The notes under the pieces are model-generated. The model was not told the DNA's origin and did no database searches. It saw only the letters and a program-made list of their open reading frames with translations. This document shows positions 4,477 to 39,478 of a stretch of 64,000 nt of DNA, piece after piece. The translations under genes and the position numbers were made by a program. How positions within the stretch are numbered: position 1 is the stretch's first letter; each line of letters opens with the position of its first letter. This DNA comes from Eledone cirrhosa (lineage: Eukaryota): NCBI GenBank assembly GCA_964016885.1, contig OZ024757.1, forward strand, positions 1-64,000. The letters are read 5' to 3'.

Positions 4477-4594
4477 TAATATATATATATATATAATATA
4501 TAACGAAGGAAATGTGGTAAGGAACCAGGTGGACCATAACGCACCAAAGTACTCAATACTTGGGGTAGTAGAGTGGGTAATAGGAACCAGTAAG

Positions 4595-4688
4595 ACCCCG
4601 ACGGCTGAGCTCAAGGCGTTTCGACGGCTAATTCTGGACTAAATGAAAATTTATCCTGGTATTTAAATAGCCGATCTTCTCAAGGGGT
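4595..4688 (-). ncRNA. U3-A8 variant hammerhead ribozyme (inverted-arm copy)
   Basis: Minus strand reads ACCCC, TTGAGAA, GAtCGGCTA..TAGCCGTC, GAAA, CGCC-TTGAGCTCA-GCCG, TC, GGGGT; one helix III mismatch. Confidence 0.75.
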
Positions 4689-6034
4689 AATTCCATATAT
4701 GGTCAAAGTGATTGTCAAAAGTCAGTAGTAATTCTGTGATTGCAAATTAGTTCGGGGAGATGGTGGCTAAACCTGCCAGTAGGAGAAATAGGGGAGGGGG
4801 TGGAGTAGACCCAATCAAGCGTTGGTAGTGCCAGCTACAGCTGGGCATGAGGTCAAAGAAGATACTGGGGAGGAGAAGGGGGAGGAAGTCGGAACGGTAG
4901 GTAGAACAATGAGGGGTAAAAATATATATGAAAGAAAAAATACTGAGAGTGAAGAAAAGCGAATAAGTGTAAAGAAAAAAGTAAAGCAAGTTCTACGACC
5001 TATGTCTCTAGCTATTGTTAGGCTAGATAAATAAATAAATACATAAAGAAAGAAGTAAAGAAATAAATAAAGAAATAACGAAATAAGTAAATGAACTAGG
5101 TGGGACGGAATAGGCAAGGACCCTTTTAAGAGGTATAAGTACGTAAATCATACGGTGACGGGTCAACAAATGGGGCCAAAATACTAAAGAGACTACCACG
5201 AAATAAATAATAAAGGTTTCTATCCCGGGCACAATGCCAGCAACCACCCAGTGCAGCAAAGTAAACTAGTACGAGATAATAATTCTGAGTCCCGAAAAAA
5301 ATATATACTAATGCTAACTCTAAAAGATCTTAAACAAGCTACATGAAGGTTCGTACGAAGTAAAGGTAGAATACGGAAAAATAAATTCAGAATCCACCCC
5401 GCCCAAAAGAAAAGCGAAGAAAGAAATACTGAAACGAGAAAATAAGGCATAAGTGCCACTAAGAAATATAGAAGGCACGGAAAATAGTGGGAGCGGTCGG
5501 AAAAAGGGGGCAAGTATCCGGGGTCTAAACCCACTGCTATAAAAAGCGGAGTCCGTCAAATCTATCATAGATTAGGGGAGGGGGTGGGGGTACTAAGGCT
5601 ACAAGGGGCTAAAGGGCAGCCTCGGGTGGGCGAGAAAAGACGCCGACAAAGAAGAAGAGCTGGCGTAGAAGGACTAAAGAGGGATGGGGGTAAGGAAATA
5701 AAGGAAGCGATAAAAGAATAAAAAGAAGATCTTACGTCTCCCTTGGCAAGCAGGGGTTACCCATTGCAAAATCGGCAAGTGGGGTGTTATGGCCCTAGTC
5801 TATGGCCCCGGGTCATTATGGGGTTTGAGGGCGAGGTAAGTCCTACGCAATCTATGTTTACATGCAGTAACCAGTTCATCTTTCTTGTTTAGGAGTTGGT
5901 CCGTCGAAAACAGCATTTGTAAAGTTTCCTCCGAGCATAAATTGCACAGACGGCGTCCTCCCGTGTAAGAATTGGTAAGAGAGTTTGATGGTATTTTTGT
6001 TAATTCTGTTGTGGTAGCGGTGTTGTAGTGGGAA

Positions 6035-6896
6035 GTGTTTTTCAATGAGATATCCCGTTTGTCAGCTAATGAGCGGATATTCGATGAACATGCGCCTTAT
6101 TACAACCAGGCCCTCAAGCGGAGCGGTTTCCGGGAGGAAATATCCTACTGTCCAGCTCCCATTAGCGGAACCAGCAGGAGACACCGCCGCTCACGCAATG
6201 TAACATGGTTCAATCCTCCCCACAACGCAGAGGTGACAACTCCCATCGGGAAACTATTCTTTAGGCTCATTGAAAAACACTTCCCACTACAACACCGCTA
6301 CCACAACATAATTAACAAAAATACCATCAAACTCTCTTACAGCACTACACCAAACTTCGCACAAAACATCGTCTCCTCTAACAACAAAAAACTCAACCCC
6401 GATGGCAGAAATAACCTAAATAGCAGTGGAGAACCGACCAGGAGATGTAACTGTCCGGATAGATCCATTTGCCCACTCGACAATAGATGCAGAGACCGTA
6501 ATGTGATCTACCAGTGCAACGTGAGGACGGATACCTCCAACAAAGCCTATATAGGACTTACTGCATGTGACTTCAAGACCCGGCTATACCAACATAGACA
6601 TACCTTCGGAAACCCGCCGGCGTCACGCCACTACACTTTCGGGCCACATATGGGACCTCAAGGACAACAACATCACCTATGATCTCACTTGGAGATTACT
6701 GTCCAGAGCCAATTCTTACACGGGAGGACGCCGTCCGTGCAATTTATGCTCGGAGGAAACTTTACAAATGCTGTTTTCGACGGACCAACTCCTAAACAAG
6801 AAAGATGAACTGGTTACTGCATGTAAACATAGATTGCGTAGGACTTACCTCGCCCTCAAACCCCATAATGACCCGAGGGGTAGACTAGGGCCATAA
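6035..6896 (+). pseudogene. PLE RT-thumb and GIY-YIG endonuclease, 5'-truncated, one frameshift near 6610
   Basis: WFNPP..IKLSYS..CNCPDRSICPLDNRC..VIYQCNV..AYIGLT..FKTRLYQH; second frame TTLSGHIWDLK..CNLCSEE..LNKKDELVTACKH. Confidence 0.88.
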
Positions 6897-7983
6897 CACC
6901 TCACTTGCCGATTTTCCAATGGGTAACCCCTGCTTGCCAAGGGAGACGTAAGATCTTCTTTTTATTCTTTTATCGCTTCCTTTATTTCCTCCCCCCATCC
7001 CTCTTTAGTCCTTCTACCCCAGCTCTTCTTCTTTGTCGGCGTCTTTTCTCGCCCACCCGAGGCTGCCCTTTGGCCCCTTGTAGCCTTAGTACCCCCACCC
7101 CTCCCCTAGTCTATGATAGATTTGGCGGACTCCGCTTTTTATAGCAGTGGGTTTAGACCCCGGATACTTGCCCCCTTTTTCCGACCGCTCCCACTATTTT
7201 CCGTGCCTTCTATATTTCTTAGTGGCACTTATGCCTTATTTTCTCGTTTCAGTATTTCTTTCTTCGCTTTTCTTTTGGGCGGGGTGGATTCTGAATTTAT
7301 TTTTCCGTATTCTACCTTTACTTCGTACGAACCGTCATGTAGCTTGTTTAAGATCTTTTAGAGTTAGCATTAGTATATATATTTTTCGGGACTCAGAATT
7401 ATTATCTCGTACTAGTTTACTTTGCTGCACTGGGTGGTTGCTGGCATTGTGCCCGGGATAGAAACCTTTATTATTTATTTCGTGGTAGTCTCTTTAGTAT
7501 TTTGGCCCCATTTGTTGACCCGTCACCGTATGATTTACGTACTTATACCTCTTAAAAGGGTCCTTGCCTATTCCGTCCCACCTAGTTCATTTACTTATGT
7601 CGTTATTTCTTTCTTTACTTCTTTCTTTCTTTATTTATTTATTTATCTAGCCTAACAATAGCTAGAGACATAGGTCGAAGAACTTACTTTACTTTTTTCT
7701 TTACACTTATTCGCTTTTCTTCACTCTCAGTATTTTTTCTTTCATATATATTTTTACCCCTCATTGTTCTACCTACCGTTCCTCCTTCCTCCCCCTTCTC
7801 CTCCCCAGTATCTTCTTTGACCTCATGCCCAGCTGTAGCTGGCACTACCAACGCTTGATTGGGTCTACTCCACCCCCTCCCCTCTTTCTCCTACTGGCAG
7901 GTTTAGCCACCATCTCCCCTACTAATTTGCAATCACAGAATTACTACTGACTTTTGACAATCACTTTGACCATATATGGAATT

Positions 7984-8077
7984 ACCCCTTGAGAAGATCG
8001 GCTATTTAAATACCAAGATAAATTTTCATTTAGTCCAGAATTAGCCGTCGAAACGGCTTGAGCTCAGCCGTCGGGGT
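7984..8077 (+). ncRNA. U3-A8 variant type I hammerhead ribozyme with extended helix II
   Basis: ACCCC(7984-88), TTGAGAA(7989-95), GAtCGGCTA..TAGCCGTC, GAAA(8050-53), CGGCT-tgagctc-AGCCG, TC(8071-72), GGGGT(8073-77). Confidence 0.8.
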
Positions 8078-8089
8078 CTTACTGGTTCC

Positions 8090-8090
<1 letters not shown>

Positions 8091-8133
<43 letters not shown>

Positions 8134-8724: not shown

Positions 8725-9370
8725 GTAGAGGTCAGATGTACTTAACAATAACAAACACAAACATTACAGGAAGCCTCACCCCAGAAAGAATTTCTATAGA
8801 CTTTGGACTGAGGAATGCTCTCAAAACTGACCAATGAAAAGTTTGACCTTACAAATCTTTATAACATTGATATGGGTATAACACACACACACACATTTTA
8901 TTCAATTATTTTATTTTATTTTGTTCCTTTACCATCTTATTCCTTCTACCACTTTATCACTTTTTTTTTAGCTGACTCCAGCAACAACACCACTACCAAC
9001 ATAAGAATAGAGGTCAGATGTACCTAACAATAACAAGAACAACAACTACAGATTGGCTTGCCTCAGAACGAATTTCTATAGACTTTTGACTGAGGAATGT
9101 TCTAACAACTGACCAATGAGAGGAGAAGAGGTCCTTTGACGCTGAAATTCGTTTGTTTAAATTCATATGATTCCAGTTCCCCAGTGAAATAACAACCCAA
9201 CCAGGAACTGGGCATATCAGAGTATTGACAAAGTTATACACCTCAACAACATGTGTACTCGTCTCTACCACACTAATTTGGACTGCCTGAAGAGGTCACA
9301 GTCAAAGATGGCTGTCACCGAAATATATATAGCAGTAATAAACGAAGCCAAATTTTAAACATTTGACTTA
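8725..9370 (+). mobile_element. PLE-type 3' UTR/pseudo-LTR remnant with internal duplication and hammerhead
   Basis: 8725-8850 and 9008-9140 are diverged direct repeats (AGAGGTCAGATGTAC..GAATTTCTATAGACTT..CTGACCAATGA); 9165-9370 is homologous to 1915-2135. Confidence 0.6.
9282..9336 (+). ncRNA. Minimal type I hammerhead ribozyme
   Basis: ACTGC, CTGAAGA(9287-93), GGTcACAGTCA-aaga-TGGCTGTcACC, GAAA(9320-23), TATATA, TA, GCAGT. Confidence 0.85.
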
Positions 9371-9723
9371 TTGCCCTATATTTACACCCCCCCCACACGC
9401 TTACACCTCCACTTATTCTCTCTCACACATACACACACAAAACCAGTTCTAACACCAGATAACACCTATCCCCCACATTTACGAATAGACTTATCTTCTC
9501 ACACTCACACACACACTAACATACACCTTCATGCATTCTCCCACACACTTAAACAGGCATGTATATAAAAAACCAAAAAACCCCCAAAACAAACCCCTTT
9601 TAAAGGGAGACTACTCTTTATCCACCTAATTTTAACTCTTTGACATTAGAGATAGAACAGATACTCTATACCATTTCCTGTCAGCATGACTTGGCAAGCT
9701 ATTTAGAACGCTGGTTTGAGACC

Positions 9724-9779
9724 TTTATTTCCCTCTGAAGAAGAGATATTATCTCGAAAATTAAGGACATTTAAATAAA
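9724..9779 (+). ncRNA. Minimal hammerhead ribozyme in 5' pseudo-LTR
   Basis: TTTATTTcCCT, CTGAAGA(9735-41), extra A, GAGAT-att-ATCTC, GAAA, AT, TA, AGG-acattt-AAATAAA; palindromic AATT helix III. Confidence 0.75.
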
Positions 9780-9899
9780 TCTAAGGTAAAAGACTAATTG
9801 TCAACAATATCTTTTGCATTTGCATTCTTTATTCTATGTCCATACCTGCATTGTTTTGTCTTTATTATACATATTCAAACGTTTATACCTCATTACACA

Positions 9900-12465
9900 A
9901 TGCTTCAAGTGAACTATAACCTCCTCCTTCCCTTACGCCTGAGCCAGGCCCAGTTCACAACTGTAAAGAAACTCTTCCAGCTATCTGAAAAGCGCGCCAA
10001 AGCCGGCTGCCAAATAAACTTCCTAAAACGATGCCTGAATAACAACATCATCCCCAAAACTATCAAAAATTTGCACCTACCAACATGCTTCAAATCACCA
10101 GGCCTCAAACGATCAGTTAGTTACATACAAACATTCTGCCTAAGAAAACTCATACAACACCTACACTGCACGCTACAACATCACATACGGACTATTTCCA
10201 GCCTTGTACCACAACTCGCTGAAACCCCAGAACCTCTGTCCAGAGTCATCTCCGCCACTATAGACAGGTCATACCACCATCGCCGAGACTACGAGAAAAT
10301 ACGTCTAACGCAAAAATTTCTCAAACTCAGGACGGCCAACTGTCTTAACAACATCCCAACTCTAAACACCAACAGAGGCGAACAAGACGGTACCAACACC
10401 GAACCTAGCGGCGCCCCGACCAACAACACACCTGACGCAAAACACATCGTCACAGACTTGACAGGATCCCTCTCCTGAGAGGAATTAGACCTCCTCAGCC
10501 TGGGTCCCAAGTTTATATTGAAACAGAGACTGGACGACAAATTATGGCTCGACATAGAAACGAATTTCTGTCGGGCTGCCTACCAACTAAAATGGATATC
10601 GACTCTCGGCAACAACACCACGGAATCTATCAAACCCAGATTCCTGATATACCAACTAGATCAGCCACTCTGTCCACCGCCTGCCAACCGCGAGCTTGAA
10701 GAAAAACTCTCAAGGCTAAAACATTCCGTATTTAACATCTTACGGAAACAGAAGAAGATAGACCCAAACCTCTCCAGGACACAACTCGCCCTGAAGAACC
10801 TACGGAATAGGGAACTTGTATACTTACCATCCGACAAAGGTAAAGAGTTTTGCGTCATCTCTCAAGCCACATACAATAACCTAGCCTTTGAACACCTAAG
10901 CGACAATGAATTATACACAGAGATCCCGGACATGACTGCAGCCCAGATCGAAAAACAAACCAACTCCATCTGGTTCGATATCTGTAGGAGAAGACAACTC
11001 CCAAATAAAGTTAAGCTCAACTACACCACTAGAAATAGCAGACTGCCCACTTTCTACCACCTCATCAAGACCCACAAGAATAGTACTAAGACGCAAATAA
11101 GACCCATCGTCTCTAGCATAGAAGGACCCCTATACAAAATTTCCTGGCTCCTCAAGCCTCTACTCTCCACCTTTCCCGGGCATGTCAGTAGCTCCGACGA
11201 AGTTATACGTAGACTACACCAACTCCAGCCAGAACAACTTAAACTAAATAGTTACGCCTTTAGCCTCGACGTTGTCTCCCTCTACACTACAGTCCCCGCC
11301 TATCCAGCTGTCAATTTATTGACGGACTGCGTGGTCGCAGAGGACATCCACTGCTACGGTCTCCACCCGACGGACATACACCAGCTTTTGTCCTTCACAG
11401 TAGACAACACGTACTTCACCTTCCACCACCACACATACAGACAGACAACAGGATTACCCATGGGATCCAGCCTATCGGGCCTGCTGGCCATCACCTACAT
11501 GAACCAGCTAGAATGCCGAGCCCTCAACACCTGCCATTCCCATACCTTCTTCATCCGATATGTAGATGACATACTCATCCTTACATCATCCCGTGAGGAG
11601 GCAGATAAAATATACACAACATTCTCCTGCATGGACGCCAGTATAAAGTTCAGCATGGAACACCCCGATGACCGCGGATCCCTATCCCTACTGGACTTCC
11701 AACTCAGGGTAACAGAGGAAGGCAACATCCACACCTGCTTCTATAAAAAAGCCGCCAGCAGGGACCTGTTCGTACATTTCAGATCGGCCCTCCCACTCGG
11801 TGCCAAGTTCGGATACATAAGGAACGAACTGGCACGTATCCGGAACAAATGCACCGACGCTAGAGACCGAGACACACACACCACACATTTCCTGGAAGTA
11901 CTCAAACTGAACGGATACACGACATCCACCACAAACCGTGCCAGAAAGAACAGGACACCACACCCGAGGCACTAACACTTGCTTCCTGAAGCTCCCACAC
12001 TTCAGTGAAGAAACAACAACAGCCATCCGCAGAGCCATCAGACAAGAGGGACTAGATATCCAACTGGCCCACTCAGGTCCTTCTCTATGCGGACAGCTAA
12101 CCCAAAGACACTCCACCAGACATGACAACTGCTGCAGACTAGCCAACTGCTCCATCAACGACACAGACCTATGCCACCAGGCTTACGTCGTATACAGACT
12201 AGAGTGTGACAAATGCAACAACTTCTACGTAGGTAGCACCACCAGACCACTCTACATAAGAATAAAAGAACACCTCAATACTAACGCTTCCTCATTTAAG
12301 AAACATCTAGTTAAATGCAAAAACACCGACAAAACCATAACAGTTAGGATAGAAACTAAGGAAAGAAACCTCGGCAATCTTAGAATTAAGGAAGCACTAA
12401 TTATAGACAAAACACAACCACCAATCAATAATAGACTAGAACTCAACACCCAATTTATAACCTGA
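9900..12465 (+). pseudogene. PLE reverse transcriptase and GIY-YIG endonuclease polyprotein (one stop, one frameshift)
   Basis: ATG at 9900; in-frame TGA 10476-78 in LS*EELDLLSLGPKF; PSDKG, RPIVS, FSLDVVSLYT, YRQTTGLPMGSSLS, RYVDD, LSLLD; frameshift ~11960; VVYRLECDKCNNFYVGST..RIKEH..KEALII..IN. Confidence 0.93.
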
Positions 12466-12820
12466 TAGAGTTTCTAGCCCCATATTTACACCCCCCCACA
12501 CACGCTTAATTATCCACTTATTCTCTCTCACACATACACACACAAAACCAGTTCTAACACCAGATAACACCTATCCCCCACATTTACGAATATACTTATC
12601 TTCTCACACTAACATACTTACACCTTCATGCATTCTCCCACACACTTAAACAGGCATGTATATAAAAAAAAAACACAAAACAAAAACAAACCCCTTTTAA
12701 AGGGAGACTACTCTTTATCCACCTAATTTTAACTCTTTGACATTAGAGATAGAACAGATACTCTATACCATTTCCTGTCAGCATGACTTGGCAAGCTATT
12801 TAGAACGCTGGTTTGAGACC

Positions 12821-12876
12821 TTTATTTCCCTCTGAAGAAGAGATATTATCTCGAAAATTAAGGACATTTAAATAAA
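12821..12876 (+). ncRNA. Minimal hammerhead ribozyme in 3' pseudo-LTR
   Basis: Identical to 9724-9779, 3097 bp downstream. Confidence 0.75.
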
Positions 12877-13606
12877 TCTAAGGTAAAAGACTAATTGTCA
12901 ACAATATCTTTTGCATTTGCATTCTTTATTCTATGTCCATACCTGCATTGTTTTGGCTTTATTATACATATTCAAACGTTTATACCTCATTACACAATGC
13001 TTCAAGTGAACTATAACCTCCTCCTTATTTATTTTATTTTATCTTATATATATATATATATATTATTTTGCATTTTCACAATATTATACACAGATGAATT
13101 CAATCGCCTAATTTAGGTGTTGCCTCCCTTGCTGAACCCCACGCGGGGTCAGTTACAGACACATCTATGTGGACTTTCGAACTGAATCCCGTTGACAACG
13201 CGTACTCCTAGTTCAGTCAGGATATGAGAAACTTTATGTAAGTGGACAGTAAATGACTTATGGAGCTGCAGAAACCCCAACACTGGACTTTACCATCATT
13301 CCAGGGGTCCGGGGAGTATCAAACATGTATATTTTCATATATTTTTATATCTGTATATCTGTTTGACCCAAAATAGGAGATCGAATCTTCGCTGTGTGGA
13401 TGATTAGTTTAACCACCATCTCAGTGTGTTTGGCCTTTAACGTAAGTTGTAAGCTCTAATTCATTTGAATTATTGAGCGTTTGCCTCACAATTCGAAAGT
13501 GTTTTCTCGTTATTTCATGGGCTGAAATTCGATTCTCGCTAATTTTTACTTATATATATATATATATATATATATATTGATATATATATATATATATAGC
13601 ACCGGC

Positions 13607-14429: not shown

Positions 14430-17400
14430 GCTGGTGGCACTAATAAAATCACCCAGTCCATGCTGTAAAGTTGTAAAGTGGCATTGGTGTTAGGAAGGGC
14501 ATCCAACCAGTGTATCAATGCCAAAACAATTATGAGCACAACAACAAATATATAGGAACAACAAAAATATGAAGACGTCGAATCTCAGAGTTGCAACACT
14601 TAATGTTGGCACTCTCACAGGTAGATCTGGTGAAATAGTGGAGATGCTAGAGCGAAGAAATGTGGATGTGTGTTGCGCGCAAGAGGTGAGATGGAGAGGT
14701 GCCTCTGCGAGACTAGTCGCAGGCAAACATCTTAGCTATAAGCTTTTCTGGGTAGGTAAGGATGATGGGTTAGGGGTAGTAGGCATTTTCCTGGCTGAGA
14801 GATGGATCAATAAGACAATAGAGGTAGTTCGAGTTAATAATCAAATAATTAAGCTTAGATTAGTTGTAGGTAGGAGACTACTGACAATCATCTCTGCCTA
14901 TGCTCCCCAAGCAGGCCTAGGCAAAGAAGAGAAAGACTGCTTTTACGAGCAACTTTTACAAACAACCGCAATGACAGAGGACGGAGACATCATTATGCTA
15001 GCAGAGGACTTCAATGGTCATGTTGGACAGCTCTAGGATGGTTACACCGGGGTACATGGTGGGCACGGTTACGGCTCAAGAAATGAAGAAGGAGTGAGAC
15101 TTCTTGAATTTTGTGATGCAAGTACACTGACTATTTGCAACACTAACTTCCAGAAACCTGCCAACCACCTAATAGCCTACAAATCAGGTGAGCACATAAG
15201 CCAGATTGACTTCTTACTAGTTAGGCAGCGGGACAGGCAGATGGTGTCAAATACCAAGGCATACCCTGGGGAAGAATGTACCCCACAGCATAGGTTAGAC
15301 GTTAGTGATATCTCAGTAAGCAAGAGATGGAATGAGACATATAGGAAGGTGTGGCAAAGAAAGGTTTGAAAGCTAAAAGACCTTTCACTAAAATACAAAT
15401 TTAGGAAAGCCCTTCAAGATGTGTATGACGAAAAAGAAGACAATTTAGAGTCGTATGACATAGATAATAACTGGAATTTCTTACGTGACAACTTACTGCA
15501 GGCTACTGATGAAACTTGTGGCTGGAGCAGAGCTCCAGCCAGACAGAGAGTGACCTGGTGGTGGAACAGCACAGTAGATAAGGCCATTAGAGACAAAAGA
15601 CTAGCATGGAATGCTTGGGAAAAAGGTGGGAGTAGAGAAGGATATACAGCCGCTAAGAGAGAAGCTAGACGTCAGGTGTACTTAACACGCAGGGAGGCTA
15701 AGAGTAGGAGGTTTGCCAATGTTCTGCGATGGGAAGATCAGAGGTGTGTGGTGTTCCACATTGCAAGGCAGTGTGTCAATGTAAATCAGGATGTTGTTGG
15801 AGATAAATGTGTCCGGGATGATGCCGGTGTACTTAGTGTCACGAATGATCAGAAAAAGGAGGCCTGGAAATGTCATTATGAGAGACTGATGAATGTGGAG
15901 AACGAATAGGAGAGAGAGAGATATTACCCTCAGTAGATCCGACAGAGGGACCAGCTATTGAGATTGACAAATATAGGGTCCAAGAGGCGATTAAGGAAAT
16001 GAAAAATGGTAAGGCTGCTGGACCGCCTGGGATAGTTGCTAAGATGCTGAAGGTATCAGAGGACGTAGGCACTAAACTGGTTGCACGCATCATCAATCAA
16101 GCTATATATGGTGGTGTCATACCCAAAGACTGGTGCAGCAGTATTCTCATAAATTGCTACAAAGGTAAAGGGGATGCTCTGGAGAGGAGCAATTATAGGA
16201 GTATAAAATTGATGGATCAGGTTATGAAAGTAGCAGAAAGGATATTAGCACAACTAATTAGAGAAAGGGTCAAACTAGATGAGAGGCAGTTTGGTTTTGT
16301 GCCTGGGAAAAGTACAACAGATGCCCTCTTCTTGGTGAGACAATTACAAGAGAGGTTCTTAGAGAAGAATAAGCCACTATACTTAGCCTTTGTTGACCTA
16401 GAGAAGGCCTTTGATAGGGTACCCCGATCTGTCATCTGGTGGTCCCTAAAGAAACTAGGTGTTGAGGAATGGCAAGTGAGGACAGTGCAAACTTTGTACT
16501 GAGGTACTCTCAGTAAAGTCAGGGTAGGAATGGAGTTTAGTGTGGAATTCCAGATACAAGTAGGAGTACATCAAGGTTCAGTTCTGAGCCTGCTCTTGTG
16601 CATTATAGTCCTCCAAGCCATAACAGAGGAGTTTAAGACTTAGAAATAGTGGACACCTTCCGTTACTTGGGTGACAAAATCGGCAGTGGGAGGGTGCTCT
16701 GAAAGTACAGTAGTTAGAGTCAGAACTGGATGGAAAAAGTTCAGAAAGCTTATACCGCTATTAGCCGCTAAAGGGTTCTCTCTAAAAATGAAAGGCAGGC
16801 TGTATGATGCCTGCATACGATCAGCAATGTTACATGGCAGTGAGACCTGGGCATTGTGTGCAGAGGATATTCGCAGACTGGAGAGGAACGAAGCTTGCAT
16901 GCTCCGCTGGATGTGTAATAGTAATATACGTGAACGGCAAAGCATAAACGAACTAAGGGAAAAATTAGAAATAAGAGGGATCAGATGTTGTTTAATCGAG
17001 AGAAGACTACGCTGGTACGGTCATGTGATGCACATGAAAGATGACAGCTGTATAAAAAAGTGCAGGGCAATAAAAATAGACGGTAGCCACGGAGTAGGCA
17101 GACCCAGAAAAACCTTGGACGACTTGATAAATTACGACCTCACACACTTACACTTCTCCAAGACAATGTCACTGGACCGAGATCCTTGGCGCTACACAGT
17201 AATACAGAAGACCCGCCTTACCTAAGTACAAAGTGAAACCTACTACAGTCAGTAGGCACCTCTAACAAAAATACACCCCCGTCCCACTACCCCTACCCCA
17301 TCCACACCACCCCTTTCAATGTAAAGTTATGTTGGTATCACAACATCCAGTCCGAAACAAATGAGGTCGTGTAGGTGTCATGACAAAAAAACACACTATC

Positions 17401-19485: not shown

Positions 19486-19934
19486 CATGGAGCTATAGAA
19501 GAAAATGTGGCATATATACATACACAGGGAAAAGATATGAAGAAGATAGTGGTAAGAAACTCTCAGGAGAGCTGGACAGCAGAAGTTCTTCAGAGAAGAA
19601 ACACCTCTCACACAAGTGTTTCAGTCCTTAACTTCTTACACTTTATAGGGGCCAGGCCACATCCAGGTCAATTAAGTCACATGGAGTTTTGGTTGACAGG
19701 ATCTAGCTGGAACTCAGCTTTGTTGCCTCTGGTTTCGAACTTATATCTAGAAACTTTCTTGAGTTAAGAAAAAAAACATTGGTAGTCATGGTAACAGTAA
19801 GATGTCAACAGTGTCACCACCACCGCCAACTACAAACATGACTTACTTAGAGTTACCTACCTTAGAGTGTGTTAAAATACAAACACAATACCCTCAGACT
19901 GTATCGAGGTGTTTTTGTTCAAGAGCTAAATATT

Positions 19935-21840
19935 GTGCTATGAACATAGCACAAAATATAAATAGAATTAATAATAGAAACTTAAATTTAAACCCTAACC
20001 AAACAAACCAAGATAGCAATAATAATATTTCTAACAACAATATTCATAATAATAGTACCGTTCCGAATAACACCTCCAGAAAATGTAACTGTAGAATTAA
20101 ATCCAACTGCCCCTTACAAAATAATTGTTTAGACAAAAGCGTAATTTATAAATGCACAGTTAAAACTAGAGACAAAATATTTAACTATATTGGTGCCACT
20201 TTTACAAAATTCAAAAAACGCTGGTACAACCATAAACATACATTTAATAGATCTGATAAAAAATCTTCCACTTCACTTTCACATTTAATTTGGAATTTAA
20301 AGGACAACAATATAGACTATTCAATATCTTGGGTAACGATCTCTAAAGCACCTGCATACCGAAATATGGCTTTTTCAAGAATCTGTAATTTATGTATAGA
20401 GGAAATTTATTATATAATTAACTGTCAAAACTCTATTAATTTAAAAACAAAAATATTTTCTAGTTGCAGACATCGACAAAATTCCACTTTCAGAAGTATT
20501 TTTAATTTATGATATTCATTACACTTAACTATATCTTATACACCTTTAAAATGATCCGATTATTTACTGTGTATTTCTTTAAAATTAAAAAAAATTTTAA
20601 ATGATCTTTCTTCTTAAATTTATTATTTTTACCATTTGATATTATTTTCCTAATGATACTCTTATTAATTTTTTTCAGATGTTGATTGATAATCTTTAAT
20701 TGACATTCTGAAAGATATCCTCTTTACAATAATTCTTCGAAATGCATAATACTTTTTGACTCTTTTTAATCTTCAAACTTTCCACACATCTTTTGACATG
20801 AATAATATGTAATTGAAATTCTCATCCTCGAAAAAATAATCTCAAACAAAATAATATATAATTTTCTCTACATACTTTCTGAATAAATCATCAAATTTAA
20901 TGGTTAGCAAATAAGATTGGAGTTATCTTTTCCTTTACAAAAACACAATTGATAACTTCTATGATAAACTATATAACTTCGCCAAATTAACAACATTCTG
21001 AAAACATTTTCAATGTTAGAACAAAATATTTGAATCTACAAATTGTTCTCCTCTTACAACTTGAACTACGTCTTTTTCTTAAATATTTATGTAAAATGTA
21101 AAATCAAAATCCTCCATAACTCATATTAGAAATGTAAACAATTAATACGTGCCTTTTATTTTTATTTCTATAAAATCACCAATAATACTTATACTTGCAC
21201 AATTATTAATCTATTTATACACTTACAACCTGTTCTAATGTAATAAGATAAAATGTACTTACAACCATAATTCTTCATATAATCTAATTGATTATATATA
21301 CAATATTATAACTCATAATATAGCTAAATTAATTTTTTTCTAATTCTGTAATCATACTCCACCATTCCTACAAACTGTTAATCCTTTTTAAATTAACGTA
21401 AATACAAGCTCTTCTTTCTTTCTTTTTCTTTTTTTCTTTCTTCCTCCTACTCATACATACATATATCCTAATAATTATTTACCTAGCGTCTGAAAATGAC
21501 GTTTTTTTCAGCCCTATACCTCAACCTCATTTGTATACTCATCTTAATAATTTGAAACATTTGACTTTTCTTCTCTTTCCCTTTACTATCCAGGAATAAC
21601 TTGAACTGTTAAGATCCTATTCCTGGTTATATCAATATTTATAAAACAAACTTTGTATTTTATCTGAAGAGAGCAAACCAAAGTTTTGGTACCCTTGAAT
21701 TATATATAATAGAATAAATATAGTTTCCATTTATTTAATATCATTGAATATTATACTCCAGAAAAACTGCTGAGTGCTTTGAATCAGTTATAAACACTTA
21801 TATATGTTTAATTACCAACAAATTAAATATCCCTTTTGCC
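19935..21840 (+). mobile_element. 5'-truncated PLE (Hydra-like): GIY-YIG ORF end at 19940-20512 plus long AT-rich 3' UTR ending in (TA)n
   Basis: CNCRIKSNCPLQNNC..VIYKCTV..NYIGAT..FKKRWYNH..TSLSHLIWNLK..CNLCIEE..FSSCRH; homologous to 6035-6896. Confidence 0.88.
21656..21716 (+). ncRNA. Degenerate minimal hammerhead in PLE 3' end
   Basis: TATTTTAT, CTGAAGA, GAGcaaACCAAAgtTTTGGTaccCTT, GAAT (instead of GAAA), TATATA, TA, ATAGAATA. Confidence 0.6.
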
Positions 21841-21862
21841 TATATATATATATATATATATA

Positions 21863-21988
21863 TGGGAAAAGAGTCAGGAGTTCAGCTGTCGGGGTCCTGA
21901 CTCTTTTCCTATTACCCACTCTGCTACCCTAAGTATCGAGTACTCTGGTGCATTATGATCCACCTGGTTCCTTACCACACTTCCTTCG

Positions 21989-21991
<3 letters not shown>
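21863..21991 (+). mobile_element. 129-bp extreme-3' PLE fragment with 17-bp inverted 5' cap, inside (TA)n
   Basis: Matches the reverse complement of 4500-4610 and 38272-38380; TGGGAAAAGAGTCAGGA is the inverse of TCCTGACTCTTTTCCTA. Confidence 0.85.
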
Positions 21992-22021
<30 letters not shown>

Positions 22022-24232: not shown

Positions 24233-25270
<1,038 letters not shown>

Positions 25271-28303: not shown

Positions 28304-31300
28304 CTAGCAGTGGTACCCGGCGTTGCACAGGATAAGGTATTTTGGAACGCGGGCCGCCAACAGACCTAATGCCTTCGGTCTATTGGGAAGCCAAAAATCC
28401 ACCAGAAAGCCTCATTGCTACTGATGTAACGGCTGTTGTCCTGCTGTAGACCGAACATAGCAGTGTCTGAACCCTTATTCACGTAGTTGCAGATGTACTT
28501 GATGGACTTGACGGAGCTACAGAATTCCACGTTGACATGGGCACCGAAGGTCTTCAAAAGAAGTAGGCAGTAGGGCACTATCCATCGGTTGTCGACCTCG
28601 TGCTTTCCAACTGTCGCTGTGAAACCACTGTCTCCAGGTTGACGTCGTCTGTACAATGGGTATCCATCCACGCCAGTCTGGGTTTCTTTAAGGAACTTTC
28701 GGGGAAACCTTTTGCTGCAGACATTGTTGTTCAGGCAAGGTGAGCTCAAATTGAAACTATGCCCACATAGACCATGTTTGCCTTCACTATTTCGTAGAGG
28801 TCTTTGTCCGCAGACGGATCGGGAAGCTCAGCGGAGATGACCTTGTCAATGTCGTTTGGAGATATTCTTGTGGACAGCCAGATGAGGATATGGGCATGTG
28901 GTAGGCCCCTCTTCTGCCACTTGACGGTGTACATGTCACATTTAACTGGTCTGAAGACCTGTCCTCTCTTGATGAGCTCCATCAGGTTGATAAGCTTCAG
29001 CCGAAAGACTCTGGCCAGGAGGTCATGCCTGTCTTTGGCCTGTTGCCTTTGGAACAGTTCTGCAGCAATCTCCTTCCACTTAGGATTGCAAGTGAAAGTG
29101 ATGAACAGGTCGGGCCTGCCATAATGCTAAACGCAAGTCATGGCATCTTGCGTCCTCTCGTGGTGAAAGTTGATGGAAGAATGCAGAGTTTTCCTACGCT
29201 GGCTGGCGCTGCATCATTGGTGAGTGCATCTCGGAGGTGGATGTAGCTCTCTGACCGCAATTGCCTCTGGGGTGACCGGATGAAGCACAACCTTTCCGAT
29301 TCCATTTTTGCACACATGTTGACGGTGAATTGCTGAAAGAGGTCTCTTGATTGGTGCTGGTGGTTGAAGGAGTTGCGGCGTACCATGAAGCTGTAAGAGT
29401 AGAAACTCATGCAGGAAACAGTTTTATTGGTTGAACGCCCAGGATGTTTGGGATTATGCTGAGGAATACCAAATCGGTAGCCGTCCTCTCCTTTCACAAA
29501 CAGCAGTGTATATTGAAGAGCGTCATAAGACCTTTGCGTTTCGCTTATACGTTGGAGGATGTTGTCTCGTCGCCATGGAACAATGTCTCGAGGGTTGTGC
29601 TGATAACCTGTGAAGAAGTACAGCTATTTCATTGCATGCAGGTGAATTGAAGCGGCCCGAATGTTCGCCAGGTCTTTTCGAAACATCAATTACGACATTG
29701 AAATTTGATACGTTTCCAATGCGTACTTGAAGCTGATGACATAGCTGTTGTATGTGTGCAAAATGTCTTGTAGGTTTCTGATAATGTCAAGGTTGGTACC
29801 AGGTGAAATGGAGTTCCGCATGGCAGCCTGTTCGTTGACATTCCCGATGAAGTAAATTTGGAGGAACTGAGGACCTTGGTTGGCAGTAGATTGGAGCAGT
29901 CCGATTCTATGATACACCTGCCCTTGCACTTTAAATGTGGGCATAAATCCACCCTCTCTGACAACATTTGCCCTGGAAGGCGCAATTACCCAGGAAGATG
30001 TCATCTGGAAGGCGGATATTACCCAGAAACTGCTTTGAATTGGCAATTGAGCCTGAAAGGAGGATCTTCAGCGGTTGTGATGGGTCCTCCAGTGGGTGCA
30101 GTTTGACCTTCCCGTTTGAGCAGCACATACCAGGTGGTTCCCCCGACAACTTTTTAGCATTGCAAAATGAGCACATTTTTGACATACTTTCAAGTGTCAT
30201 GTTTGGATGGCTGCCGTAATCAAAGACAGGGCTGTACTCAAAAGCTTTGAAGACCCATTGTGAGCTGCACGGCTTTGAAACACCTTGCCTAAAGGCTCTT
30301 CGTTGGACATTACTCTCTAGACGGTTATCGCGGTCTTGCGCCGTTTTGGAAAATCAGCATCCATTGCCCGACGTCTAACGCGCTGTTCTTTGTTCTCCGC
30401 AGCCTGTGAAGCAGAAGTTGACGCGGCATCAGAGGTTTGGCGACGTTTACGCTGGTCTTCAGTCCCCGCAGCTCTTGCAGCAGACGATGTGGCATCAGCG
30501 GTATGGCAGCTTCGTCTGTTTCGAGTGCTCTTCTTACAGCACCACGTTCAGCAGCTTGTGACCGTCGGATAGTAGAATCTTCTGATGATTCATTTGCCCA
30601 CCTTGCTCTTGACCTTGCAGCTTTCGCAGTGTTTCGGCTGATGGAATATCTCTTCCTTCGAGGCATGACCTAAAAGTAGGAGGAAGGGCACTGAGACTCA
30701 CTCCTAGAGCAAGGGCTAATTTGTAAGTGAATTGCATTAGGTGTCTATGGATTTGTCTACTGGTATGTGGCCTAAAGGCAAAGCAACTTGCTTAACTACC
30801 CTCAGGGTATTGGGATGACAGTAAACTTAACATTGCGACAACCAAGGCCAAAAAAGAAGTAAAGGTCAACGATACGACTGTGGGAAGCACTGTAAAAATG
30901 TGTAGGCATTAGCGCCCACGTGCATCAGGTGAAAACTGGAGAGAGAAACTGTGTGCGCTTACTAAATGTCTGTGGAATGAGTGGTAGATTTGACCTTGAG
31001 CAGGGGTTGCAGAGCAACCGGTGTCAGAGGGTTGGAAGTGGAAACCCTGCACACAAAAGGGAATAGGGAAAATGCAGGTAGTTATGGTTGAAGGAGCAGA
31101 TTAAGGATTAGCATAATACCACGCACACGGAGACCGAAGTAGAGCGAAAGCGTCAACGTGTTGCCATTGAAAATTTTAGGTGCAACAGGAGGATTAGCAC
31201 AGCACGAGTTTAGGGTGCCAATGTCGCGGCCGCACAAACATTCCCCGAATAAACGCAAACGTTTTCGGGTTGTTCACCTAATGTGGGCCTGTAGCAATGT

Positions 31301-35528: not shown

Positions 35529-36340
35529 CGTCCCTTTACGATCTGAGTTCAAATCCCGCCGAGGTTGACTTTGCCTTTCATCCTTACGGGGTCGATAAAA
35601 TAAAGTACCAGTAATGCACTGGATAATTGCTGGCCTTGTGCCTAAAGTAGAAACAATTATTTGTGCTACAATGAGGGGTGGATTGGCAGTATCGGTAGAG
35701 GGTCGGACGCCATGCTTTCCAGCATAGTTACGTCCCTTTACGATCTGAGTTCAAATCCCGCCGAGGTTGACTTTGCCTTTCATCCTTACGGGGTCGATAA
35801 AATAAAGTACCAGTAATGAACTGGGTATTTGCTGGCCTTGTGCCTAAAGTAGAAACAATTATTTGTGCTACAACAAAAATAAACATACATTTCATCTCTA
35901 ATTTCTACTGTTGACGTCATTATTATGTTACTCGTGTCTCAATAACATTATTATACTATGCTGTGGATTGGGAGTATCGGTAGAGGGTCGGACGCCATGC
36001 TTTCCAGCATAGTTACGTCCCTTTATGATCTGAGTTCAAATCCCGCCGAGGTTGACTTTGCCTTTCATCCTTACGGGGTCGATAAAATAAAGTACCAGTA
36101 ATGCACTGGGTAATTGCTGGCCTTGTGCCTAAAGTAGAAACAATTATTATACTATGCTGCTTGGCAGTATCGGTAGAGGGTCGGACGCCATGCTTTCCAG
36201 CAGAGTTACGTCCCTTTACGATCTGAGTTCAAATCCCGCCGAGGTTGACTTTGCCTTTCATCCTTACGGGGTCGATAAAATAAAGTACCAGTAATGCACT
36301 GGGTAATTGCTGGCCTTGTGCCTAAAGTAGAAACAATTAT
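35529..36340 (+). mobile_element. Four near-identical head-to-tail tRNA-derived SINEs (family B): ~35529-35672, 35676-35872, 35963-36148, 36161-36340
   Basis: A box TGGCAGTATCGG, B box GAGTTCAAATCC, core GCCTTTCATCCTTACGGGGTCGATAAAATAAAGTACCAG, AATTATT tail. Confidence 0.9.
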
Positions 36341-36458
36341 TATACTATGCTGCTAAATATGTATGTATATATAATAAAAATGATAATAATGAAATTATTG
36401 TGTGTAAAGTGCTCAGGTGCACTACAACTCGTCAAAGGTGTATGTATAGTACATAGAA

Positions 36459-36645
36459 TAATTGTTTCTACTTTTGGCACAAGGCCAGCAATTACCCAGT
36501 ACATTACTGGTACTTTATTTTATCGACCCCATAAGGATGAAAGGCAAAGTTAACCTCGGCGGGATTTGAACTCAGAATGGCAAGGGCCGTAACTCTATGC
36601 GTCAAAGCATGGCGTCCAACCCTCTACCGATACTGCCAATTCACC
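36459..36645 (-). mobile_element. SINE family B copy, inverted
   Basis: Reverse complement of the 36161-36340 unit. Confidence 0.9.
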
Positions 36646-36688: not shown

Positions 36689-37920
36689 TTAGCTGTAGTG
36701 TTGGCGGATCTTGGGAAGCATGGAGGCCTTAACGGGTGCAGTGTCTTGACAGCTAACAACTGATGCAGGTAGTTTGTTCCATGCTTCAGCAACTCTGTGC
36801 GTGAAAAAATGTTTCCGAAAGTCATGGGAACTGTGCTGTTTTCTGACTGTGGGCATGTCCACGTGTGTTAGACACATGGAAATCAAAAAGGTATTCAGGG
36901 TTGTTGTTGGCAACATGGTTAACAATTTTGTGGGTGTTTACCAAGTCAGTTGCTAGGCGTCGGAGCTTCAATGTATCCATGCCCAGAGAAGCAAGGCGCT
37001 CAGAGTATGATAGATGCCTGATGGAGGGTATTCGCTTGGTTGCACGTCTCTGAACAGTTTCCAGGCGGTTAATCTTCTGAGCAAGATAGGGGTTCCAGAC
37101 TGGTGATGCAAATTCTAAGTGTGGCCGCACCATAGTCATGTACAGCCTTAAATAGATATCTGGAGAGCGGCTGACAAAGGTCTTGCTGAGTGATGTTAAC
37201 ACACCCTCGGCCCTCTTGACAATTTTAGAGACGTGCTTCGTCCAACGCAAATCGCTGCTGACCGTAATGCCCAGGTCACGTTCACAAGAAGACTTCTTGA
37301 TATTAGTGCTGTGGAGGGAGTATGTGGACGCTGGATTTTTACTCCCAAAATGCATGGTGGTGCACTTGTCCACAGCTAGCTTGAGTTGCCAGTCTGAGAT
37401 CCATTGTTGCATTGTGTCCAGGCCAGACTGCAAGCAAGATCTATAGTGTTCAGGATCTGTCCTTTTTATCTCAAGGTACAGCTTGATGTCATCTGCGTAC
37501 TTTAGTACCGTGGCATTCTTTAAGTTGGCATCTATGTCATTAATATATTCCACAAACAAAAAGGGGCCAAGAACAGATCCCTGTGGTACACCTGATGACA
37601 TCTCATATGATGAGGAATGCTGTCCCAGAACCGTGACTACCTCTCTTCGACTGAGAATGAAGGATTTCAACCAGATAAAAAGATCATCCTTCACACCCAT
37701 TGCAGAGAGTTTTGCCATAAGCCTTTTGTGTGGCACAGAATTGAAGGCTTTCGCAAAGTCAAGGTAAACAACATCCACCCATGAGCCGCCATCAGTGATC
37801 CAGGTGATGTCCTCAAGAAACTCTATAAGTTGGTCACAGCAGCTGGAGTTGGGGATAAATCCAAATTGCGAGGGCCGGATAAGACTGTGAGAACTCCAGA
37901 AGTTCCAAAGTGTTTCTCTG
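36689..37920 (-). mobile_element. 5'-truncated CR1/L2-group LINE with open RT domain
   Basis: SQFGF, VVYLDFAKAFNSVPH, SGVPQGSVLGP, YADD, RDLG, VRPHLEFASPVWNP, VQRRATK, TRGH; frameshifted FFTHRVAEAWNKLP. Confidence 0.92.
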
Positions 37921-37977
37921 ACACATATATGTATGTATATCGACACACACATAATAAATAAGCATGTATAGTATATA

Positions 37978-38150
37978 TCATCATTATCATCATCCTTAAA
38001 CCTCCATTTTCCATGCTAGCATGGGTCAGACGAGTTGCCCCGTTGTGTGAAAAGTTAGATCAGATGACCGTATCTTGCTTATACAAGAACGATTTTTCGC
38101 TTGGTTTCTATGGCTGTATGTCCTTCCTAACTCCAACTACATTTACAGAG
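37978..38150 (-). mobile_element. RTE/SINE-type 3' tail fragment
   Basis: Minus strand GTTGGAGTTAGGAAGGACATACAGCC..CCCATGCTAGCATGGAAAA..(GAT)n. Confidence 0.7.
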
Positions 38151-38271
38151 AGCTGGTGTTGTTGTGTATATATATATATATGTGAGTGTGTGTGTATATA
38201 TATATGTGCGTGTGTGTCTATGACCAGTGTATATAGATCACAGACACCCACATATATATATATATATATAT

Positions 38272-39478
38272 ATAACGAGGGAATTGTGGTAAGGAACCAG
38301 GTGGACCATAACACACCAGAGTACTCAATACTTAGGGTAGTAGAGTGGGTGATAGCAAAAGGTATGACCCCGACGGCAGAATGCAAGCCATTTCGACGGC
38401 TATTTCAGGACTAAATTAGAATTTTTAGCCTGGTAAATAAATAGCCGAACTTATCAAGGGGAATTTCCTTATATGAGAAGATTGTAATTGTCAAGAGGAA
38501 TGGTCAAATTTTGTTGTAAAGACAAATAGATGTCATGGCATTTGGTGGGAGGTAGGGGTGGCTGAACTTGCCGGTAGAACAAAGAGGAGTGAGTAAAGCC
38601 AGTCAGGCGTTGAAAATGAAATCTATACAATAGATTCTAAGGATAGTGTATGAAAGAAAGTTCTGGGGAAAAGGAGGAGAGGAGTATAAAGAATAGGTAA
38701 GTCGAGGACGATGAAAAAAAAGAAAAGTATATATATATAAAAAATTATATATTGTGAAATGAGTGAAAAAAAACCCCATAAAACAAATACAGTAGAATCT
38801 AGAAACAGCTGCAATAATTAGTAAGTGTTAAGTACGTCGAAGCTATAGAAAAGTTTAATAAGTAGAGAGTATAAGATACTAAATAAGAGAAAGTAAAAAT
38901 GGGTCGTGAAAAATATAATGCGAACTTTTCAAGGGGTCTAACACAGCCGCTATCAATAGTTAGTAAAGCTATCTTACAAATACAGGTGAATAATTAGAGT
39001 GGAGAAACTAATAAATGAGAAATATAGAAATAGTAGAAATGGAGTAGTAACAAAAAAAGAAATTACTGGGCCCTAACACATCTGCTATAAAAGTTGGTAA
39101 AGCGTAATCAGCCAATTCTATCTTAAAATTACAGGGGTGGGGGTACTGAGGCTACGGAGGACCAAAGGTTGCATCGGGGTAGGCGAAAGGGGAAAGACAA
39201 ACGAGGAAGAAGATCGGGGGTGGAAGGAAGTGATAGAAAGAGACGGGGGGAAGAAGGACACATAGAGGAAAAGAAAAGAGGTACTTCTACCTATGTAAGC
39301 AGGGGTTTCCCCTAACTTATTCGGCAAGTGGGGTGGGGGGTATCAGCCCTTGTCTACGCATCCGGGTCGTTATGGGGTATTAGGTAGAGGTAGGTCCTAC
39401 GCAATCTATGTCTGCATGCGGTAGAAATACCTCTTTTCTTTTCCTCTATGTGTCCTTCTTCCCCCCGTCTCTTTCTAT
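38272..39478 (-). mobile_element. Diverged relative of the 4500-8090 PLE: last codons, 3' UTR and short inverted 5' segment
   Basis: Minus strand TACRHRLRRTY at ~39420-39390; 3' end ..CCCTCGTTA|(TA)n at 38272; 39420-39478 is the reverse complement of 39232-39291. Confidence 0.88.
38367..38462 (-). ncRNA. U3-A8 variant hammerhead ribozyme (diverged copy)
   Basis: Minus strand reads CCCC, TTGATAA, GttCGGCTATTT..CAGGCTAAA-aattctaa-TTTAGtCCTG-AAATAGCCGtC, GAAA, TGGC-ttgcattct-GCCG, TC, GGGG. Confidence 0.78.

Follow-up and report, generated by a model that had tools for sequence, protein, structure and literature searches.

A Hydra-type Penelope-like element and its hammerhead motif

The window analysed here, a 64,000-nt stretch of Eledone cirrhosa contig OZ024757.1, carries at 7984-8077 (+) a type I hammerhead motif, three helices around a core, in the pseudo-long terminal repeat (pseudo-LTR) of a Penelope-like element (PLE). 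The ends of related copies across the genome suggest that capped transcripts of this element start inside the motif, and that a minority of the longer transcripts are likely to have been cut in the cell at the predicted bond. The element is young and abundant; by its protein motifs, compared with published descriptions, it is a Hydra-type PLE, which bears out the Hydra-like assignment of a first-pass annotation of the window. Its single open reading frame (ORF) encodes a reverse transcriptase (RT) followed by a GIY-YIG-type nuclease, and read from the first AUG it has 717 codons, with RWR, DKT, YRDD, CxCX5C, CxxC and CxH motifs and without GxKF/Y. By eye, only one cysteine lies between VIY and YIG, so the nuclease has no CCHH motif; Pfam gave no match for the Hydra-type ORF. 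The nuclease fragment in the window has many near-identical copies in the about 3.0 Gb of genome searched, many of them in open frames of 784 codons. The element unit is 3,531 nt long, as seen in an array of four tandem units that differ by at most one base. In these units the predicted cut sits 190 nt upstream of the first AUG, an intact unit has 1,187 nt from its stop codon to the next cut, and the insertion target is (TA)n. The four units (G000:C1:437197500-437216500) alternate C, T, C, T at a single base, a pattern that two rounds of copying from a two-unit template or dimeric circle would leave, as would duplication of the pair as DNA.

The components listed in the first-pass annotation (ACCCC, UUGAGAA, a long helix II, GAAA, helix III, GUC and GGGGU) are all present, and the required core positions U4-G5-A6-N7, A9, G12-A13-A14, A15.1-U16.1 and H17 are in place, with the closing pair G10.1-C11.1 found in 147/150 family copies. 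The motif was rightly described as full-size: helix III has 5-6 bp, where minimal hammerheads have none or 1-2 bp, although the palindromic loop III of minimal forms is present, kept in 133/150 copies and invariant among 11 subfamily majorities. Helix II, described as about 55 nt, measures 54 nt here and 54-56 nt in 141/150 copies, but only its ~8 proximal pairs are confident and the distal part is unpaired in the centroid. Similarly, of the suggested helix I extension (GGAAUU/GGUUCC), both strands of GGAA/UUCC are kept in 116/150 copies but the rest is not family-wide; helix I also holds a conserved internal loop. In isolation the RNA is predicted to form all three helices, with pair probabilities of 0.96-0.98 at the core and 0.6-0.8 for terminal pairs, while its fold energy is nothing unusual against shuffles (z -0.74 to -1.22). 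As anticipated, descriptors restricted to CUGANGA miss the motif, and an Rfam scan of the window gave no hammerhead match up to E = 1. A generic hammerhead descriptor matched 7984-8077, 38461-38368 and two copies of an unrelated canonical motif; it skipped the copy at 4688-4595, in which a G-to-C change breaks one helix III pair. All three copies in the window keep U3 and A8, as had been stated, but that at 4595-4688 is not independent, being the inverted arm of the 7984-8077 insertion (94% identity over 1,567 nt).

Genome-wide, a 20-nt core pattern returned 7,096 matches and its reversed control none, so the motif is not a product of chance. U3-A8 occurs in at most 5,325 of these matches, C3·A8 in 1,715 and G8 in 56 (by eye, 45 with U3, 10 with C3 and one with A3). 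The youngest subfamily is almost uniformly U3-A8 (99 of the first 100 listed copies, by eye), while U3·G8 characterizes an old lineage (20/23 copies); the idea that G8 copies are all random mutants was half wrong, many of them belonging to that lineage. The reading of U3-A8 as a compensatory pair therefore does not hold strictly in this family: since C3·A8 and U3·G8 lineages have spread, and C3-G8 is found in only ten matches, positions 3 and 8 do not covary across the copies compared.

Conservation was compared among the 11 subfamily majorities, which cover 129 of 150 copies. Variable columns number 201/267 in the untranslated region (UTR), 15/25 in the helix II loop and only 2/36 in the ribozyme 3' half; the 5' half has 6/21 (p = 2e-5), a figure biased by the partial use of core patterns to pick loci, by which subfamilies with other cores would be missed. 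The variable core positions are 3, 7 and 8. The helices are nearly invariant, a single G-C to G·U change being seen. In a midpoint-rooted tree of 150 copies (202 found, 52 dropped because they had no homologous upstream sequence), built with columns 3 and 8 excluded, C3·A8 copies branch off in ladder fashion between older and younger U3-A8 groups; inner support is weak and the sample was enriched by design for rare cores, so the order U-A, C·A, U-A is no more than suggestive. Literature searches found no paper on C3·A8 activity.

Ends of the genomic copies

The ribozyme 3' half has 54,002 exact genome matches, while the core half has 7,096. Truncation within helix II is the rule: most copies are tiny inverted insertions that end there, and 12,477 inverted insertions have their junction within the helix II stretch. 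Among 88 arms drawn from the first 100 listed places of 3'-half matches, 61 end 35-45 nt before the cut, nine closer, six at 47-79 nt and 12 at 95 nt or more. An earlier idea, that the 20-30-fold deeper 3' half came from other families with a different helix II, proved wrong: truncated copies cause it. The longer arm usually ends at A8032 or G8033, within a heptamer (8030-8036) that we take to fit the initiator consensus. In 127 insertions both arms end at A8032 and are joined with one G absent from the template; with C in place of G, a control search found 40, almost all of them carrying another 3-4 bases copied from nearby arm sequence. An untemplated 5' G is accepted as a sign of cap copying in LINE-1 and SVA (PMC4859970). 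Because both arms end at A8032 and carry this mark of a cap, a capped transcript likely starts there, inside helix II and without the core strand, a start that the first-pass annotation appears to have overlooked. The Penelope pseudo-LTR is described as containing an internal promoter (PMC2377424), and such promoters are known from PLE pseudo-LTRs more widely (PMC2377424; PMC6765202). Sequencing-contig depth also climbs about eightfold across the helix II start, in contigs of undefined kind that probably come from the same study as the assembly and are uninformative on expression.

At their other end, the copies stop at two places past the cut, +20 (70 arms) and +100 (56 arms), among 146 arms with the young tail whose apparent ends include overlap with the TA target. 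A rarer class of junction lies at the cut itself. There are 262 short inverted junctions near the cut with the youngest tail. The first 60 distinct ones sort into four groups: 14 in which an untemplated insert separates two arms that both end at G8073, 11 blunt and ambiguous, 13 with a single arm ending at G8073 and 22 of other kinds. Among the 31 insert-bearing junctions, 38 of 62 arm ends fall at G8073 and five at the next best position. Microhomology was considered as the only source of the peak and rejected: the 11/60 junctions that are ambiguous in this way do not enter this count. Across the genome, an arm ending at G8073 is followed by A or T in 163 strand matches (by eye, 32 distinct single-base junctions in the first 100 rows). 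An equivalent search for ends one base upstream yielded 23 matches, every one of them accounted for by overlap with a longer arm; still further upstream, the junctions scatter over longer overlaps. The capped form at G8073, which would point to a minor start there, was rare, in only four insertions. The G8073 ends thus look uncapped and base-exact, and are the likely footprint of cutting inside the cell. A sister tail type, in which C3·A8 occurs in 74 of the first 100 listed full-core copies (by eye), has 230 near-cut junctions.

Proposed mechanism and alternatives

We consider it probable that helix II houses a promoter start, that the main capped RNA holds only the ribozyme 3' half, and that read-through RNA folds and is cut in a minority of molecules. 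On this model the element enzyme would nick both strands of (TA)n, and two complementary DNAs (cDNAs) would start inside the RNA at its two fixed ends (+20 and +100), be copied to the RNA 5' end, gain an untemplated base and be joined end to end. Promoter-started capped RNA, holding half a ribozyme and unable to cut itself in cis, would give the common tiny palindromes and also serve as messenger RNA (mRNA), its start inside the ribozyme preserving the cap and permitting translation. Read-through RNA alone would hold the whole ribozyme: once cut, it would yield the rarer, smallest palindromes, and left uncut, long and tandem ORF-bearing copies. With the cDNA starts lying downstream of the cut, rapid cleavage would shut the ORF off from copying; the model therefore predicts a slow ribozyme, which would agree with tolerated U·G and C·A cores and is compatible with spread of the element. 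In PAc, a Poseidon element of Anolis carolinensis, internal initiation of reverse transcription has been demonstrated and ribozyme mutants left insertion unaffected (PMC11167929). The RNA of the plant retrozyme NbRZ1, which starts upstream of its ribozyme, is reported to be untranslatable for that reason (PMC12029980); a start inside the ribozyme would be a plain answer to keeping an mRNA translatable. We put a fuller proposal at slightly better than even on the sequence evidence: the promoter would split the hammerhead and so spare the capped mRNA from cis cleavage, germ-line read-through RNA would be cut at a low rate, and both kinds of RNA end would be recorded base-exact in the genome.

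Several observations weigh against the main model. No double compensatory change was found at any helix pair among the 11 subfamily majorities, and in predicted folds with 350-450 nt of context a rival hairpin that buries GAAA is preferred. The commonest capped junction (35 of the first 50 listed, by eye) could in part have arisen by templated copying of three arm bases, an explanation that does not apply to forms whose middle bases are absent or different. Scaling 25/60 junctions to 262 gives about 110 insertions, or 220 arms, which against 2,284 whole-ribozyme arms suggests roughly one cut template per ten uncut, an estimate that presumes equal copying of cut and uncut RNAs. Most pointedly, the C3·A8-rich tail has 68 strict matches per 1,156 full-core arms (0.059) and the young tail 163 per 2,284 (0.071), in sets that are only roughly matched; normalised to all tail arms (17,993, split 54:45 in the first 100), the rate of the C3·A8-rich tail is about half the young one, more than the quarter expected if C·A were dead. 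In PAc, a broken 3-8 pair (C3G or G8C) abolishes cleavage (PMC11167929). The C3·A8 footprint could reflect either tolerance of C·A, cutting completed in trans, different source lineages for short and long copies, or ends made by something other than the ribozyme.

This last possibility keeps the helix II start but has a weak or vestigial hammerhead, retained for promoter function and protein binding, with G8073 ends left by decapped RNA trimmed 5' to 3' up to a bound protein or helix, or by a polymerase stop at helix III. Exonucleases may stall at such obstacles. Besides the similar footprint of the C3·A8-rich tail, the spread of C3·A8 lineages to 1,715 matches, on the tree trunk between older and younger U3-A8 groups, would suit it, as would the near invariance of the 3' half, loop III included, which is what a promoter or protein site would show; PAc, moreover, inserts without cleavage (PMC11167929). 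However, the G8073 ends match the scissile bond to the base, and a stop at helix III predicts the adjacent position, where no clear junction was found. The core half, which promoter-started RNA lacks, is nonetheless conserved at catalytic positions with N7 free, and the untemplated A or T at the junction resembles the run-off pattern at the capped start. We regard such an origin as rather unlikely.

We give a similarly low likelihood to a two-part or dimeric enzyme, in which the loop III palindrome would pair two copies, or a core strand from another RNA or from the RNA's own 3' end would join the half ribozyme with which a promoter-started RNA begins, complete it and so remove the capped 41-nt leader. 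Such an enzyme is compatible with the helix II start, and U3-A8 partners would explain cutting in C3·A8 lineages. Beyond the constancy of the palindrome, modelling predicts a helix III dimer at -30.7 kcal/mol against 2 x -7.1 for monomers and a whole-motif dimer at -61.9 against -45.4, while a core strand and a promoter-started strand are predicted to assemble a hammerhead at -29.9 against -18.0 apart; PLE hammerheads with a palindromic loop III are also reported to be active as dimers (PMC4209133; PMC6765202). Against this, helix III suffices for a monomer (pair probability 0.96-0.97), and loop III may be conserved as DNA, for instance as a downstream promoter element. Two-strand folding invariably favours long duplexes, which makes these energies a poor guide to what happens in cells. 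The first-pass suggestion of a monomer therefore stands as a predicted fold of the isolated RNA but is not established, given the palindromic loop III and a dimer predicted to be more stable. A stronger version, an efficient and self-sufficient U3-A8 monomer that processes tandem transcripts to unit-length or circular RNAs, which are then copied, seems improbable. Near-identical tandem units exist, the isolated monomer is predicted to fold and the youngest copies are nearly all U3-A8, yet both element ends lie past the cut, so that only an uncut or circular template could give long copies, full-core arms exceed cut-site arms about ten to one, and C3·A8 and U3·G8 lineages have spread.

Insertion ends bear on the cellular role of PLE hammerheads. 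Since RNA 5' ends appear to be recorded in the insertions, a genome alone would suffice to count cut and uncut templates in each subfamily, and the method should transfer to any PLE-rich assembly. If the promoter-split hammerhead is real, this record would be evidence of PLE hammerhead cleavage in vivo, and would imply that U·G and C·A cores, or half ribozymes completed in trans, still work in cells.

Window features and comparison with known systems

Coordinates of the element and its motif are collected below.

Features of the Hydra-type element in the window
Feature	Position	Strand	Remarks
C-terminal part of RT-GIY-YIG ORF, 5'-truncated, frameshifted	6050..6881	+	97-99% identity to intact copies
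Long 3' UTR	6882..7983	+	
Helix I extension, 5' strand	7978..7981	+	conserved, 4 bp; partner 8086-8089
Hammerhead motif, type I, pseudo-LTR	7984..8077	+	sequence, folding
Helix I, 5' strand	7984-7988	+	helix I = 5 bp
Core strand U3-U4-G5-A6-N7-A8-A9 (UUGAGAA)	7989..7995	+	N3, N7 and N8 differ among subfamilies
Helix II, 54 nt	7996..8049	+	G10.1-C11.1, mismatch/bulge, six conserved pairs, variable loop region
Initiator-like heptamer, putative capped start A8032	8030..8036	+	41 nt before cut; from arm ends, consensus assumed
G12-A13-A14-A15.1 (GAAA)	8050..8053	+	sequence, subfamily alignment
Helix III, 5-6 bp	8053..8071	+	6 bp here (8053-8058 with 8066-8071); palindromic loop 8059-8066
Predicted scissile bond after C17 (C8072)	8072..8073	+	coincides with uncapped insertion-end class
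Helix I, 3' strand GGGGU	8073-8077	+	
Short element 3' end, about +20 from cut	8086..8092	+	abuts (TA)n target; putative first reverse-transcription start
Inverted 5'-truncated arm, same insertion as 7984-8077	4497..5975	-	hammerhead 4688-4595, 80-nt tail ~4579-4500
Older-subfamily copy	38269..39455	-	hammerhead 38462-38367, tail present
Tiny inverted insertion, older subfamily	21863..21992		truncated inside ribozyme, in (TA)n

The rival hairpin is a 6-bp stem within 8043-8058 that pairs the helix II 3' strand with the helix III 5' strand; it is predicted to dominate in promoter-started RNA as well as in long contexts, and folding models make it a possible off switch. Elsewhere in the window, a second PLE, of the Penelope/Poseidon type, has ORFs at 9798-12465 with RVT_1 and GIY-YIG matches, direct repeats at 9373-9929 and 12477-13026, and a canonical CUGANGA hammerhead at 9282-9336 (+) and 2017-1963 (-) in which a palindromic A/U run forms helix III; this PLE would serve as a natural positive control for end mapping. 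Another Hydra-type family at 19763-21690 (+) has a nuclease 41% identical to that of the element and a long A/T-rich 3' UTR; CUGAAGA near 21665, before (TA)n, may be the remnant of a decayed canonical hammerhead. The last 24.5 kb (39477-64000) are filled by several hundred units of a 40-bp satellite, and a tandem C2H2 zinc-finger open frame lies at 24233-25270 (-). Translations inspected by eye also revealed fragments resembling RTE-type long interspersed nuclear elements (14536-17225, +), Helitrons (28366-29623, -) and a CR1/L2-type RT (36822-38015, -). An imperfect inverted repeat at 36161-36639, made of a dispersed repeat, causes a spurious plant microRNA match, and the Rfam microRNA matches in the window are (TA)n artefacts. 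A bacterial promoter scan was empty and is irrelevant here.

The element most closely resembles the Hydra clade of PLEs with a C-terminal endonuclease (C-terminal EN+), exemplified by Hydra-1_Obim (Craig et al. 2021, PMC8557442), which the N-terminus of its ORF resembles by eye. According to the clade description, it shares DKT, a CxCX5C linker, CxxC, CxH, the absence of GxKF/Y, a (TA)n target, and RWR where the clade has RWK, as well as an inverted 5'-truncated arm with a one-sided tail (PMC8557442). It differs in its 3,531-nt unit, where the clade is generally under 3 kb, in a tail of ~80 nt rather than 30-40 nt, and in its hammerhead: all 26/26 Hydra rows of File S2 have CUGANGA, a short helix II, a helix III of 3-4 bp and a loop of 1-3 nt (PMC8557442). 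Length and a canonical hammerhead are descriptive traits of the Hydra clade and not its definition.

The U3-A8 core, which the first-pass annotation had made its headline, is less distinctive than was suggested, natural variants having been published (Perreault et al. 2011, PMC3088659), including about 1,300 matches to U3-A8 PLE hammerheads in Schistosoma mansoni (Cervera and De la Pena 2014, PMC4209133). As described there, the minimal hammerheads of the S. mansoni Cercyon PLEs likewise combine a U3-A8 core in a pseudo-LTR with G10.1-C11.1 and a palindromic loop III, but they lack helix III and have a helix II of 7-8 bp, in contrast to the 5-6-bp helix III and 54-56-nt helix II found here (PMC4209133), and in the present family C3·A8 and U3·G8 lineages have spread as well. 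Long helix II or U3-A8 PLE forms may also have precedent in Lunse et al. 2017 or in the supplementary figures of PMC4209133. The U3-A8 core alone is thus of low interest and mostly precedented; what appears new is the helix II start together with base-exact uncapped ends. In the literature available, which included bioRxiv 10.64898/2026.07.22.740005 and covered subscription journals thinly, neither a transcription start within a PLE hammerhead nor genomic copy ends at the cut of one turned up.

For the ends themselves, the closest parallel is PAc (Frangieh et al. 2024, PMC11167929), in which the tail is likewise set by two internal reverse-transcription starts past the cut, cleavage and extension occur on both target strands, and uncut RNA is the main template. 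PAc belongs to another clade, its ORF begins at stem II, and the RNA reads described for it neither began nor ended at the cut site, where genomic copies of the present element do end (PMC11167929). The sharing of DNA between promoter and ribozyme recalls the Pr77/HDV (hepatitis delta virus)-like ribozyme of Trypanosoma cruzi L1Tc (PMC3383444) and the long terminal repeat of NbRZ1 (PMC12029980). L1Tc is reported to cut on the 5' side of +1 with the whole ribozyme in the transcript (PMC3383444), and NbRZ1 to start upstream of its hammerhead and be cut (PMC12029980), whereas here the start would lie inside the ribozyme, 41 nt before the cut.
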